A stretch of DNA of 18,768 bases from Candidatus Aenigmatarchaeota archaeon. Its GTDB lineage: Archaea; Aenigmatarchaeota; Aenigmatarchaeia; Aenigmatarchaeales; JACQIB01. The DNA is taken from NCBI GenBank assembly GCA_038999215.1, contig JAWABM010000014.1:1-18768 (forward strand). The letters run 5' to 3'. Below, piece after piece: positions 3,001 through 9,000 of this stretch. The first letter of the stretch is position 1; each line of letters opens with the position of its first letter. Position numbers: made by a program.

Positions 3001-6000
3001 TGTGCTCAAGGACACACCAACGGAACGGTGGTCCTTTACATGGCCGCTCGAAAGAGGTGCTGAACATGGAAGAGAAGATGGACATACACAACTACGGGCA
3101 CAAGCTCGACCTTGCGATAGGAAGCGTCAAGAGGTCGGCCATGCTTGAGGAGAACAAGAAGCATATCTTGGGCTTCTACAACAGCCTTATTCTGCGGGGC
3201 GTGAGCCAGCCGTGCACCTGCAAGTACATCTACGAGATAAGGAACATGGCTCTTTGGCTGAACAAGGACCTGGACAAGACGACCAAAGAAGACATTATTT
3301 CAGTTATCCAGAAGGTTGAGACCGAGCCAGCCTATACGGAGTGCACAAAGCACAACTACAAAGTCACCCTTAAGCTGTTCTACCGTTGGCTCAAAAACAG
3401 CCCAAGAAAGCAATACCCGCCCGAAGTGGACTGGATAACGAGCGGCATCAGGAACAGCCGCCACAAATTGCCCGAAGAGCTTTGGACCGAAGAGGACGTG
3501 ATGAAGCTAATCAATGCGGCTGATAATCCGCGCGACAAGGCTCTGATAGCAAGCCTCTACGAGTCTGGTTGCAGAGTTGGGGAGCTTGCCAGCCGCAGGA
3601 TAAAGCACGCGCAGTTCGACAAGTACGGCGCGGTTGTTATTGTAGAGGGCAAGACCGGAATGCGGCGTATAAGGCTGGTCAGTTCCGTTCCCTACGTTGC
3701 CGCATGGCTGTCCAACCACCCCGACAAGGACAACCCCGATGCCCCGCTCTGGATATGCATAGGCACAAAGCACAAGGGTCAGCCCCTGACCTACAACGCC
3801 ATAGGCAGGGTATTCAGCGATAACGCCCAAAAGGCAGGCGTCAAGAAGCGGCCCAATCCGCACATGTTTCGCCACAGCCGGGCAACATTCCTAGCAAACC
3901 ACCTTACAGAAGCCCAGCTAAAGCAGATGTTCGGCTGGACGCAGGGCTCGAACATGGCCGCGATATATGTCCACATGAGCGGCAGGGATACGGACAACGC
4001 CATATTGAAGCTGAACGGCTTAGGAGGCGACGAGCGCAAGAACGAGGAAAGCGCCCTAAAGCCCGTCAAATGTCCCCGTTGCGAGTTCGTGAACGGAGCG
4101 ACCTCGAAGTTCTGCAACCGCTGTGCTGCCCCGTTGGACATACGGACAGCCCTTTCAATCGAGGAAAAGACGAACAACCTGGCGCAGAGCTTCGCGGAGG
4201 CGGTCGGGAGCGGAGCAGGACTGGCGGAGATAGCAAGGCGGCCAGAAATGAGCCAGCAGGACTTGGAGAGGTTGGCGAGGCTGGTGGTGGGATATATGAA
4301 GAGGTGAGGTGTGCGATAGCTTTAAATATCTTCACTATAGAGTAGTTAGTATGAGCAAAGCGCAACCAGTATACGATGTTCTGGACAGGATAGATGCGCC
4401 CACGGGCAAGGAAAAGGTATTCTTTCCCGGAAGCACACACCTGCCCGAAGGGAACCGTGACTATAAATCCAAGAAGTTTGTGGCCAACCTTGACCACAGG
4501 CAGATGACGCTTCTCGGGCAAGAGATATCCAAAAGGTATGGTGAGCGCTATACGCTGCTTCCGTTGCAGACGAGCTGCGACCTTGCCCACAAGGACAAAG
4601 AGTTCAAGAAAATGAATGTTGATTATTGGCTTCACAACGAGCCGGTCATTCTCGAGGTCGGCGAAATAATCGCCCATCCGATCGTCAAGGAAGTTGACGG
4701 TGAACTCAAATACGATTATACACCAAGCAAAATGATAAAGACCGAAATAAACGAGTCTGATGTTTTTGATACCCTGATGAAAGCAGGGCTTCTCAAGGAA
4801 CCCAAAAAGAAAGTCTATCGCGGTGGTATTGATTTTGAAGATGGTGAAGCTTCCGTCAGGTCGAATTGGTACTCCGACGGGGGGTGCTTCTCTGCGTATG
4901 CGTACAGGCCCTCGTACAGGGATGACCACGGGGTTGCCGCGTTCGTGAAAACGGGCGAAGCCGTTGAGAAGCCGAAAATGCGCGTGATCGCAGAGAGCGA
5001 ATATCAGGAGTTTATCAGGATAAAGAAGGAGCATGAGGCTCTTCTGAAGGAACTCGCGCCCGTGAAGAAGTATTTCTAAGGGATAAATCCCTTAACGTTC
5101 TGAATTTGGACATGCCAAAGCTCTTTCCTTCTCCCAGACGGGGGGGGGGCAAAATTTCAATTCTCCCGGCAAAGGCCCGCGCTATACGCCTTTCCATAGA
5201 GCACGCAAAGTGCCGTTAAATACAGCGGCGACAGTTGGTAGGCTTCCGAAAACTGGAGCCGCGGTGTATCTTTGGTGGAGAGGCTACCGAAACCCTTCCG
5301 TCAGGTCGAATTGGAACTCCGACGAGAGCCGCAAGGTCGTCAAGGGTGCTTCAATGCGAACGGTTGGAAGGAAACGTCCCGCCGGCATAAATGCGAACAG
5401 GCCCTCGAACAGGAAACTTTCTTGCCGCCTTTTGGCTGGAAGCCTGAATGACAACGGGGTTGCCGCAATAGCGCGGACTGCCGATAGGGGATATTGATGA
5501 AGACCTATGGCAACCTTTACGGAAAGGTCTGCTCGTTCGAGAACCTTTTGCTGGCCTTCAGGAAGGCCAGAAAGGGCAAATCGGATAAATGGTATGTCAA
5601 AAGGTTCGAGGCGGACCTTGATAACGAATTATTGCGGTTGAAGCGCGAATTGGAAGAGCAGGCATATGAGCCGCGCCCACTGAAGAGGTTCATAATCAGG
5701 GACCCGAAAACGAGGGTCATACACGCCTCGCATTTCAGGGACCGCGTTGTCCATCATGCGCTCTGCAACGTGCTCGAGCCCATTTTTGACAGGACGTTCA
5801 TTTATGACAGCTACGCCAACAGGAAAGGGAAGGGCGGCCTGGCCGCCCAAGACAGGTTCGACGAATTCAAGCGTAAGGCTTCGCAGAACGGCCGTTTGGT
5901 GCGCGGCGCGAAGGACGACAACATGGTGGTCGGCTATGTCCTGAAGGCCGACATAAGGCATTACTTTCCGAGCGTTAACCATGAAATCCTGACGGGCATT

Positions 6001-9000
6001 ATAGGAAGAAAAATAAGGGATGAAAACATTCTTTGGCTGATAGGCAGGATTTTGTCGAACAACGACCCCGCCCTGCCGAAGGGCATGCCCATAGGCAACC
6101 AGACCAGCCAGTTCTTCGCAAACGTCTACCTGAACGAGCTTGACTACTTCGTGAAGCATGTGCTGAAGGCGAGGTTCTATTTGCGGTATGTTGACGACTT
6201 TGTGATATTGGACAGGTCGGAAGCAAAACTCATGCTGTTCAGGAGCGAGATAAACGGATTCCTGAAACACGCCCTGAAGCTGGAACTGCACGAGGAAAAA
6301 TCGCAGGTCTATCCTTTGCACAAGGGAATATCGCTGCTCGGCTTCAGGATGTTCTACCATTACAGGGTTCCTAAAAGAAGGAACCTGCTGAAGCTGGAAA
6401 AGCGGATGTTGAAACTCAAACGTTTGTATGAATCGGGCGAAGTTTCCGCCGAAGAGGTTGCGAAATGCCTTGAAGGTTGGCTGGCATATGCGAAGCAGGG
6501 CGACACTTTCAAATTAAGAAAAACGCTCGTTGAAAAATATGGCAACATGTTCAGTATTACATTTTCTTAACTCCTTGTGGAATTAATCCTCTGGAAGGCG
6601 CAGTTAGCGCCTTTCTAATAAGTGGTTGACGGCTAACTCAACTAACACCTGTCAATGTGCTCTCTTGGCTCAGAAACGCTGCTTGTGCCATATTCCAACT
6701 CGACGGGCATTAAAACCGCCCGCTTTCCGGTTTCATCCTGCGGGAGCCCGTCATTCAAGGGCATGAAAATCGGGAGGAGTTAGAATTGGGGGCTAACTCG
6801 GCCGGGAACGACGGCTAACTCGACCACCTTATTTCGAGCGGACCTCCCGCACCAGTTCTCACGCGCCCATCGCGCCGTAAGCAAGGCCCGCGGCGGTCGA
6901 GTAAAGGATGACCAGCAGAACATAGACGGCCGTCTTTTTCGTGCCCAGTATTTTTCTTATGACCAGCATGTTCGGCAGGCTCAGGCTTGGCCCTGCTAGG
7001 AGCAGCGCCAACGCAGGCCCGCCTGCCATGCCCTTCAACATCAGTGCCTGCACTATCGGTATCTCGGTCAGCGTGGAAAAGTACATGAATGCCCCGAACA
7101 CCGAGGCTATGAGGTTGCCTGCCACGTCGTTGCGTCCGACCGTGCTCTCTATCAGCGCCTGCGGGAGAAGCGGCATAATGAAGCCGGCTATGAAGACCCC
7201 GATGAATAGCAGCGGCAGCAGGACCTTTGCGAAGCTCCATGTCTCCCCGAGCCAGGCCTTGGTGGCGTGGTCCCTGAACTTGAACAGCACTGTGCCTATG
7301 ACAACCAGCGTGAACGCGACCATGAGCGAGTATTTGAGGAACATGCCTATCTGCAGCCCGTTCACGACAAGTATGCCCACAAGGGAGGCAAAAAACACGG
7401 CAAGCGCGGCATTTGAAATTTTTGATTCCTCGGTCTCCTGAACGACAATTTTTTCCTTGTCCGGCTTTTCCCTGAAAATCATCTGCATGCTCAGGCCTGC
7501 GATTATCGACAGGACGATTGCGCTGACCGCCCTTGCAAGCCCGAGCCCCGCCCCGAGGACCGAGAACGTGAGGAATATGGCTGCTATGTTTATCGCTGGT
7601 CCCGCGAAAAGCAGCGTCACTGCGGGCCCCAGCCCAGCCCCTCTTTTCCTTATGCCCGCGAACAGCGGCAGTATGGTGCACGAGCACACTGCAAGTATCG
7701 CCCCCGCGACCGATGCCACGCCGTAGGAAACCCATTTGTTCGCCTCATGACCGAGGTATTTCATCACCCTTTCCTTCCGTATGAAAACGGATATAGCGCC
7801 GGCAATGAACAGCGCTGGCACCAGGCAGGTCAGCACGTGCTGCTTCGCGTATTCGCCAAGGAGGCCTATGCCGCTGAGGACGGACGCCTCGAACCATGCG
7901 CTGCCCTGCGGGACAAAATAGAACACGGCAAACACGAGGGCTATCCCGAACAGCAGCATCCGGTCGTTTTTATCCATATTACAGCACCATTACTCCGATA
8001 TAGTATGCTCCTATAATCACGAACATTATTCCGACGATCTTCCTCATCCATGCTTCAAGTGTCTGCACCTTATTCGTAATTACACCAAGCTTATTTACGC
8101 TTTTTACCAAAATTATTGAAAATATTATCACGGGCAGACCTGTTGCAAACGCAAATACGGATGGTATCAACAATCCGTCACCGGCAGCTATTGCAATTGG
8201 TATCATCATGCCAAAGAACAAAACGGCGCTGAACGGACAGAACGCAAGGGCGAAAATGACACCGAGCAAAAATGCCCCGATAAATCCTTTGTTTGCAAGG
8301 CGTTCCTTTAACTTGTTTATTTTTTCACTGCCTTTTATGATATTTAATTTTATTAAATCCAGCATCAGAATTCCGGCAATGATTAGGAACGGCCCTAATA
8401 ATCTTTCCCCGTATCTTTGCAAAAACAATGATATTGTTTGTGTCTGGATTCCGATGTAAACAATAAGCGACGCTAATCCGACATAAGTAAACATCCTTCC
8501 AAGCGTATAGATAAATCCGACCGATATCGTATGCCTGCTGTTATCAATTTTTTTGCTGGTGTATGCTATTGCTGTTATGTTCGTGGCCAAGGGGCACGGG
8601 CTGATAGCTGTCATCAATCCTATGAAAAATGCGGCAACTACGGCTATGTTGCTTGCTCCCATCGCTTCCATGAAGGCCATTATGTCCATTTTTTACACCT
8701 GCAATTTACTTTCAATTACGCTTTTCAGGTAATTCATGTAGTCCTGTTTGTTGTTGATTTTATACCAGACATTTATGTTCTGTTCGGCGGAAAAGCTGCC
8801 GTCCTTATGGTAGCTGCCTATCCACAATGAAGCGCCCGTTACGCCGTATTTATTCACGAGTTCATAATTTTCTGAGAGCTCCCCGTTGACATGCCGAAAG
8901 CTTATTTTTCCTGATTTTAGCTCATCTTTAAAGTATGTATTAACGGTCTCTTCGGCGTAGTCCCCGACCGTTATGCAGGCATAGCATTGATGAGTCCCGT

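Follow-up and report, generated by a model that had tools for sequence, protein, structure and literature searches.

The diversity-generating retroelement (DGR) analysed here raises the question of how a template repeat (TR) that is broken in three places can be matched by an unbroken variable repeat (VR) in a target gene. The window, by which we mean the whole stretch of 18,768 nucleotides under analysis, is part of the genome of a Candidatus Aenigmatarchaeota archaeon (contig JAWABM010000014.1). An earlier note on this DNA had claimed that the three inserts are introns closed by bulge-helix-bulge (BHB) motifs, spliced at those sites before mutagenic reverse transcription. This is the best reading of our data, supported by geometry, covariation, co-evolution of TR and VR, an archaea-only range and the host's enzymes: with a probability of roughly 0.85, the template RNA is spliced by the host tRNA-splicing endonuclease (EndA) and RtcB and is recorded as cDNA in the VR.

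A retroelement with a split template

Joining the four exons listed in Table 1 gives a 96-nt TR that matches the VR at 71 of 71 non-A bases. The two repeats differ at 12 of the 25 TR adenines and nowhere else; the coordinates and counts given previously are exact. Three of the 12 differences lie in the last 5 nt of the TR; the core alignment has 68 matches at 68 non-A positions and 9 differences at A. With the inserts removed, the locus thus has what defines a DGR, a TR and VR that differ only at TR adenines and a VR inside a coding gene. The reverse transcriptase (RT) is also of DGR size, has a YxDD motif, lies near the repeats and clusters with RTs that have TR/VR pairs. The assembly contains one RT of this kind and one TR.

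Table 1. Features of the DGR locus, in window positions.
Feature	Position	Strand	Basis or remark
DGR target gene, 242 aa	4351..5079	+	VR near C-terminus, then helical tail; no Pfam/NCBIfam family
VR	4850..4945	+	equals exon-joined TR with A-to-N changes
Short hairpin directly 3' of VR, inside target gene	4950..4965	+	possible GAA loop; -3.8 kcal/mol; 7/200 shuffles as good
RT-16 RNA motif (Rfam RF03019), directly 5' of TR	5165..5292	+	67.4 bits vs gathering score 50
TR exon 1	5295..5326	+	TR/VR alignment
TR intron 1, 17 nt	5327..5343	+	central helix GACG/CGTC; intron stem 3 bp; exon stem 2 bp
TR exon 2	5344..5359	+	TR/VR alignment
TR intron 2, 31 nt	5360..5390	+	central helix ATGC/GCAT; intron stem 4 bp; exon stem 2 bp
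TR exon 3	5391..5415	+	TR/VR alignment
TR intron 3, 33 nt	5416..5448	+	central helix CAGG/CCTG; intron stem 5 bp; exon stem 0 at canonical register
TR exon 4, 3' end putative IMH* region	5449..5471	+	IMH* label by position only
DGR-type RT, 357 aa, intact frame, YVDD	5497..6570	+	RVT_1, E 7.5e-14; only RT of its kind in assembly

The RT-16 motif probably forms a structured 5' portion of the DGR RNA; it lies 5' of the DGR TR in 19 of 20 related loci scanned, with or without introns. The hairpin behind the VR is a weak candidate for a DGR cis element and resembles the GRA-loop hairpins described in part of PMC4372165. Fold models of the target reached pLDDT values of 39 from the single sequence and 58 from an alignment (best Z 3.6). 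No usable match came from Foldseek, from VIA-align or from a sequence search of the PDB. The target's weak resemblance to FGE-sulfatase (C-type lectin-like) Atlas rows, at TM 0.42-0.45, is below the tool's bar. No avd gene had been identified before, and this assembly, which is 88% complete, has no match to PF05635, PF22296 or an HMM built from 14 Avd-like ORFs of related loci; among the 44 intron-bearing loci of our survey, avd was found at 9 and not at the other 35. An element integrated at the tRNA cluster was considered and rejected, as there is no duplicated tRNA end downstream. An integrase-like gene occurs at only one other of the loci examined.

Bulge-helix-bulge geometry and its spread among related loci

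Comparison with the VR allows 5, 4 and 5 cut registers for inserts 1, 2 and 3, and at each insert only one of these, the register proposed before, gives a central helix with four Watson-Crick pairs (5321-5324 with 5338-5341, 5354-5357 with 5385-5388, and 5410-5413 with 5443-5446). In all three inserts two 3-nt bulges, placed exactly at the boundaries, enclose a 4-bp central helix, and the intron-side helix h' has 3, 4 and 5 bp respectively. The exon-side helices have only 2, 2 and 0 pairs, which makes the motifs relaxed and HBh'-like; the claim that a BHB closes each insert stands for the central helix, in the relaxed form and not as full hBHBh'. The local hairpins are of unremarkable stability against shuffles (z -0.3 to -1.4): the signal of the inserts is in geometry, not energy. 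Self-splicing introns are a poor fit, as the inserts of the family measure 15-82 nt against the hundreds of nucleotides of a group I or II catalytic core, and there is no group I/II intron Rfam match in 2400-6900. The intron sequences have no match longer than 12 nt elsewhere in the genome that would point to a donor.

We examined 150 RT loci, of which 93 had a callable TR/VR pair and 57 did not. End blocks with fewer than 12 matched non-A bases were trimmed from the alignments and 11 were required on both flanks, a filter that removed three weak loci (L085, L121 and L168). TR-only inserts, 92 in number, were found at 44 of the 93 loci, against 2 VR-only inserts. The central helix pairs 4/4 in 74 of the 92 (58 of them by pure Watson-Crick pairs) and 3/4 in the other 18; two null models, which also take the best register, gave mean 4/4 counts of 6.8 and 8.8 and maxima of 14 and 17 in 300 rounds. 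A 4/4 helix together with an intron stem of at least 2 bp occurs in 73 inserts and in about one in the nulls, and at least 3/4 central pairs with such a stem occur in 89 of 92. When the pairing partner was slid along the sequence, 74 inserts paired 4/4 at offset 0 while no other offset exceeded 22, and only 3 of 366 alternative VR-compatible registers paired 4/4. In 87 of the 92 inserts the exon-side helix has no more than 2 pairs. Adenine was counted in the bulges of 89 and 90 of the 92, counts that may be inflated because treating A as a wildcard makes the junction windows A-rich. The 5' strand of the helix is kept in the VR and the 3' strand lost, the asymmetry that BHB cleavage predicts. 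The letters of the helix covary at the 3'-most intron site: across 41 loci its pairs change type, being C-G in 33 and T-A in 7; A-T in 20, G-C in 10 and T-A in 7; and G-C in 20 and C-G in 18. In a held-out DPANN set all three inserts had a 4/4 helix.

Inserts had been reported at 12 of 67 RT loci, a frequency that is too low for the host phylum, in which 39 of 44 callable loci carry them; a second DPANN set has them at 3 of 20 and bacteria at none of 13 named pairs. The one locus from a viral collection is distant and duplicates a bacterial locus with a contiguous TR. The loci are related and fall into about 18 clades, so the counts overstate independence; the RT tree was a quick one with SH-aLRT support only, with 17 short RTs left out. 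Intron 1 is kept in four close homologues, and the sites of introns 2 and 3 are common to 22 and 42 of 46 aligned TR/VR pairs. The DNA contig of one relative spans the unspliced TR. Contigs from four sequencing runs were compared with the locus; those of the one RNA run touch 47 nt of the RT and do not reach the TR, and none shows a spliced TR or an excised intron.

Probable splicing and its alternatives

The template RNA, an RT-16 leader followed by the TR, would be transcribed with three small BHB-type introns. As a first step, each exon end would pair with its intron's end in a 4-bp helix that has an A-rich 3-nt bulge on either side, a fold that is seen as sequence geometry and covariation. 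The host's two-subunit tRNA splicing endonuclease would then cut both bulges and RtcB join the exons, and finally the RT would copy the spliced RNA, making errors at adenines, and the resulting cDNA would take the place of the VR. This last step is taken from the DGR mechanism, and the A-only pattern itself is observed. If the spliced RNA is what is reverse-transcribed into the VR, the VR is a genomic cDNA record of it.

The genome encodes the endonuclease and RNA ligase that BHB introns call for, as two adjacent EndA-family genes and RtcB. By our reading, nine of 21 candidate tRNAs reach normal length once a BHB intron is removed, one of these introns being at a non-canonical site, and we infer from these tRNAs that the host EndA is active. 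Against this, its alpha subunit, though it keeps the catalytic Tyr and His, has Ala at the catalytic Lys position (K334 of 5x89), as do 29 of 30 aligned relatives, the remaining one having Ser. An EndA search of 39 genomes gave 33 strong matches (E < 1e-20), 5 weak ones and none in one genome. The weak exon-side helices and the 18 mismatched central helices mean that a broad-specificity EndA would be needed; such enzymes are described in part of PMC5829648.

It is very unlikely that the inserts are instead lost without splicing, by an RT that skips them or switches template across them during cDNA synthesis. Every insert does form a stem-loop, the junctions sit in A-rich, often AAY, codons, and part of PMC5758913 ascribes known TR/VR length differences to RT slippage beside AAC. 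However, the geometries that a jump would use are at chance level, with insert ends pairing in 9 of 92 cases and flanks in 9 of 92, and exact microhomology does not exceed 4 nt and is nil in 29 inserts. Skipping would also leave unexplained the fixed 3-nt bulge spacing, the one-sided helix loss and the absence of inserts from the 13 bacterial pairs. Indels of 3-6 nt at contiguous-TR loci do fit the slippage class; the 15-82-nt BHB inserts do not.

The BHB evidence bears on cleavage and not on ligation. EndA might excise the introns and leave the exons unligated, with structure or the RT complex keeping the pieces of RNA together while the RT crosses the nicks; a nicked template RNA takes part in the priming of the Bordetella DGR (part of PMC5703328). 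We regard this as highly improbable, as junction length is exact in 92 inserts and 11 target proteins, an exon-side pairing of 0-2 bp is too weak to hold exons of 16-25 nt together, and RtcB is encoded. The claim that the RNA must be spliced and ligated is upheld as to splicing, the best reading; obligatory ligation and the further claim of host splicing control over hypermutation exceed the data, dependence being inferred and a regulatory role hypothetical.

There is little to suggest that the inserts arrived after retrohoming had stopped, or that an unseen intron-less TR elsewhere feeds the VR, and we give these scenarios close to no weight. An 88% complete assembly with no avd match leaves room for them, but it contains one RT and one TR, and the RT frame is intact with YxDD at all 41 full-length intron loci. 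At non-A bases the TR mismatches its own VR at 0.7%, compared with a mean of 53% (minimum 4.4%) for the VRs of other loci, and A-to-N change is present in 140 of 142 exons. Intron sites are common across clades while each TR fits only its own VR, which argues that retrohoming continued with the introns in place. At two loci with two VRs each, both VRs are intron-less. All 11 target homologues have the exon-joined length, with variable codons across junctions 2 and 3. Variation among these proteins, which are relatives and not one population, falls at TR-adenine codons as expected of a DGR, with a mean of 4.7 different residues at codons whose first or second base is A and 1.4 at others.

Given host splicing of the template, the introns behave as tolerated passengers of the host pathway. 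It is possible, but doubtful, that most DGR templates of the phylum are spliced with functional introns, such that splicing gates hypermutation and incomplete splicing writes in-frame loops into targets, adding length diversity. Intron lengths divisible by 3 (66 of 92; 47 of 71 when introns alike in clade, site and length are counted once; about 10 of 18 when one per clade is taken) and the 2 stops in the target frame of intron interiors, against 27 expected from shuffles, are hints in this direction. Against it count the lengths of introns 1 and 2 of the locus itself, 17 and 31 nt (48 together), and the fact that no retained intron is clear either in the 46 TR/VR pairs, which include one weak G-U-rich candidate, or among the 11 target proteins. 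We also considered a translated TR ORF (5210-5497, its stop overlapping the RT start) as the cause of in-frame introns; upstream ATGs are in the TR frame at 10 of 44 intron loci and in the other frames at 10 and 6, so that the idea is unsupported.

Implications and comparison with known systems

If true, this reading brings RNA processing by the host into the DGR mechanism and makes a retroelement RNA a new substrate class of the archaeal tRNA-splicing endonuclease; for uncultured archaea, the VR would document splicing in DNA. Introns at shared and lineage-specific sites beside an RT offer a tractable case for BHB intron gain and loss, which an Asgard tRNA preprint leaves open in the part considered (10.64898/2026.10.13.758758). 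Finders that rely on a single long repeat also overlook split templates, and annotated TRs come out short, so DPANN DGR counts and diversity estimates are probably too low. The previous claim that finders miss such DGRs is partly borne out by blastn, which breaks the TR/VR match into pieces of 30, 23 and 19 nt, shorter than the 50-bp hit required in PMC8144416, although the gap settings of that paper were not those used here. A natural spliced TR, or a DGR joined with a bulge-helix-bulge, did not appear in the open-text literature searched, which lay outside subscription papers, figures and bioRxiv supplements.

The comparisons that follow refer to the portions of each paper covered. The DGRs of DPANN/Nanoarchaeota (Paul et al. 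2015, PMC4372165) share the target-TR-RT order, the A-specific TR/VR differences, an RT of the archaeal DGR group and, if the weak candidate here is counted, a hairpin within the target gene. Their repeats are described as contiguous, whereas three introns split the TR analysed here, which also has no Avd-like ORF in the interval from target to RT; in the portion covered, 'intron' is used only for group II RTs and 'insertion' does not occur. The RT-16 RNA motif (RF03019; PMC5737381), which our window matches above the gathering score, lies here 5' of a DGR TR, while the RT motifs in that portion of the paper are without assigned function except RT-10. A survey of 372 DGRs (PMC5758913) likewise found TRs and VRs of unequal length, often by multiples of 3 and beside AAC; it ascribes these indels to RT slippage, and 'splic' is absent from its main text as covered.

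The BHB introns that archaea have in pre-tRNA, pre-rRNA and a few mRNAs (PMC5829648, PMC7714728; cbf5 intron, PMC2738675) share with the inserts the 4-bp central helix, the two 3-nt bulges, the intron stem, the relaxed HBh' form and the 15-82 nt range. What differs is that the substrate here would be the template RNA of a retroelement, in which as many as three introns fall within about 100 nt, and that its product would be written into DNA. In the Bordetella BPP-1 DGR whose TR was engineered to carry a td group I intron (PMC5703328), a spliced TR RNA also templates A-mutagenic cDNA; that system is artificial, self-splicing and bacterial, whereas the one described here is natural, presumably protein-spliced and lineage-wide.

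The retroelement and its interrupted template

The non-coding stretch between target gene and reverse transcriptase (RT) holds a template repeat (TR); in repeat searches it and the variable repeat (VR) come out as a stepped series of short matches. Once three inserts were removed, the resulting 96-nt TR agreed with the VR at 71/71 non-A positions, and the differences were confined to TR adenines, 12 of 25 being changed in the exon-joined repeat, just as the earlier note had described. The element works as a diversity-generating retroelement (DGR); its RT is of the DGR kind and its repeat is A-specific. 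The assembly (571 kb, 88% complete) contains one such RT and one TR, and searches of it with two Pfam models and a custom HMM found no avd accessory gene; structural comparisons of the target gave no clear lectin fold. The closest named RT, that of comparison locus L004, is 83% identical and labelled Aenigmatarchaeota, as are the named target homologues, which makes the host a probable member of that phylum.

Features of the window
Feature	Positions	Remarks
tRNA-Glu(TTC)	2807-2927	43-nt BHB intron about 2847-2889; missed by default tRNA scan
XerA-like tyrosine recombinase	3069-4307	C-terminal zinc ribbon; between tRNA cluster and DGR
TATA-like box	4321-4328	23-30 nt ahead of target ATG
Target gene	4351-5079
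VR	4850-4945
RT-16 RNA (Rfam)	5165-5292	directly 5' of TR; 67 bits, gathering score 50
Inserts 1, 2, 3	5327-5343, 5360-5390, 5416-5448	17, 31, 33 nt
RT	5497-6570	357 aa, YVDD
Short direct repeats	6626-6642, 6786-6799, 6808-6824	3' of RT; weaker copy at 4694-4710
tRNA-Leu(CAA)	13418-13539	33-nt intron; missed by default tRNA scan

We take the TATA-like box to fit a leaderless archaeal mRNA. An attachment-site duplication was looked for at the recombinase and none was found. Since the RT-16 motif likewise occurs immediately 5' of the TR at 19 of the 20 DPANN DGR relatives, L207 with its contiguous template among them, this orphan RNA is likely a DGR RNA leader; at locus L063 its region carries an extra 51-nt segment (about 250-300). 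The TR frame 5210-5497 is open both unspliced and fully spliced, its stop overlapping the RT start codon (TGATG). Across the family this ORF is not conserved, nor does it have a conserved start codon.

Bulge-helix-bulge geometry of the inserts

Since adenines act as wildcards, 5, 4 and 5 cut registers are compatible with the VR for inserts 1, 2 and 3, yet for each insert a single register forms a Watson-Crick helix, paired 4/4, that lies two bases away from either cut; this bears out the geometry claimed earlier. The claim that each insert is closed by a motif of the bulge-helix-bulge (BHB) type stands for the central helix and for intron stems of 3, 4 and 5 bp and is weakened on the exon side, where the helices have only 2, 2 and 0 bp; the motifs are therefore of the relaxed kind, fitting the relaxed and not the strict definition.

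Genomes, metagenomes and the host phylum supplied 166 RT loci (150 without duplicates), in which we paired TR with VR by gap-symmetric alignment, with A as wildcard and structure ignored. A pair was obtained at 93 of the 150 loci: 44 have TR-only inserts and are kin forming about 18 clades, in 46 the pair is contiguous, and a further 3, being weak, were dropped. TR-only inserts numbered 92 (15-82 nt), against 2 in the VR only. The central helix paired 4/4 in 74 inserts (58 without G-U) and 3/4 in 18, compared with best-register nulls averaging 6.8 for shuffled inserts and 8.8 for random places (300 rounds, with maxima of 14 and 17). When the partner strand was shifted, the count was 74 at offset 0 and no other offset exceeded 22; of 366 other VR-compatible registers, 3 paired 4/4. 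In the first insert of locus L062, TT replaces AA in the 3' bulge.

Inserts occur in 39 of 44 callable loci of the host phylum (17 further loci were not callable) and in none of the 13 named pairs of bacterial origin (8 more could not be called); the feature is real and widespread in one archaeal phylum. A held-out set of 29 loci from a second DPANN phylum (the best-scoring ones, with one duplicate taken out) yielded 20 pairs; three of these had an insert, each 4/4 and, it appears, at the same 3' site as in the main set.

The VR retains the 5' strand of every central helix and has lost the 3' strand and two bulge bases, which is what cleavage by the tRNA-splicing endonuclease EndA followed by ligation leaves. 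The RT might instead skip the inserts during cDNA synthesis; such a jump should take out the whole hairpin or use repeats, but those geometries fit 9 of the 92 inserts and no exact microhomology is longer than 4 nt, and we regard skipping as very improbable.

Retrohoming and intron turnover

Across 46 aligned pairs the 3' intron site is occupied in 42 and the middle site in 22, the 5' site being variable, and helix letters at the 3' site covary across 41 loci. At non-A sites, agreement between each TR and its own VR is 99.3%, against an average of 47% with VRs of other loci, and the closest foreign VR differs from a TR at at least 3 positions. Given the shared sites, TR changes postdating the introns were therefore still copied into VRs. 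A dead or hidden template is the least likely alternative; A-to-N changes occur in 140 of 142 exons, and junction adenines are mutated as often as others (98/173 vs 638/1072). Eleven of 12 target homologues are gap-free over the VR, the twelfth being divergent and shorter, and these 11 vary where the spliced TR has adenine codons (4.7 vs 1.4 residues per codon), including codons spanning junctions 2 and 3.

On a quick RT tree the intron label needs 6 changes, against a shuffled mean of 24, meaning that introns were gained or lost repeatedly. The avd-bearing DGR L190, whose RT lies outside the main archaeal clade, has three BHB introns, of 60, 36 and 69 nt, possibly an independent gain after transfer; its target is a bacterial-style lectin.

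Lengths are divisible by 3 in 66 of 92 introns (47 of 71 collapsed classes), and the 421 interior codons of these, read in the target frame, contain 2 stops, compared with 27 in shuffles and with 15 and 39 when the other frames are read; the remaining introns lack such a bias. This suggests selection for introns that remain tolerable if now and then retained in the VR. The 46 TR/VR pairs include no clear retained intron, and partial splicing was looked for and found unsupported.

Host splicing machinery and known systems

The host assembly encodes two adjacent EndA-family genes and the RNA ligase RtcB; EndA cleavage with the exons left unligated is held to be slightly less likely than RT skipping. 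By our reading, nine of 21 intron-bearing tRNA candidates reach normal length once the BHB intron is removed, among them the tRNA-Glu and tRNA-Leu of the window and a tRNA-Met whose relaxed intron lies outside the anticodon loop. The EndA alpha subunit (L001:1264-1803) keeps the catalytic Tyr and His and has Ala where the catalytic Lys would stand (K334 of 5x89, according to the portion of PMC5829648 consulted). Relatives (L228-L257) have Ala there in 29 of 30 cases and Ser in one, and a basic loop insert between Tyr and His is conserved in the host phylum; the loss of Lys thus does not look like decay. We infer that the enzyme is active, and a loop Lys may stand in. Relaxed motifs require broad-specificity EndA types, as stated in that same portion of PMC5829648, and the two separate subunits are consistent with such a type.

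Geometry, covariation, TR/VR co-evolution and host genes together leave the earlier note's proposal of template splicing at BHB sites as the best reading, and we put the probability that host EndA and RtcB splice the template RNA at about 85%, judged from sequence. The template would be transcribed with its introns, cleaved by EndA, ligated and then reverse transcribed in spliced form.

The excerpts consulted of PMC4372165, PMC8144416, PMC8867640 and PMC5758913 (the last with a search of its supplement) do not mention TR splicing, and our search, which lay outside subscription papers, figures and bioRxiv supplements, found no paper joining 'diversity-generating retroelement' and 'bulge-helix-bulge' or on the topic. 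TR/VR indels in 7% of DGRs are attributed to slippage in the passages seen of PMC5758913, a class resembled by TR-only indels of 3-6 nt, too short for introns, in the otherwise contiguous L102, L114, L122, L126, L176, L206 and L212. In BPP-1, an engineered td intron showed that spliced TR RNA is usable by a DGR RT (PMC5703328, in the part read). Known EndA substrates, within what was seen of PMC7714728, comprise tRNA, rRNA and a small number of mRNAs; the present case most likely represents a retroelement template spliced naturally by the host's tRNA machinery.
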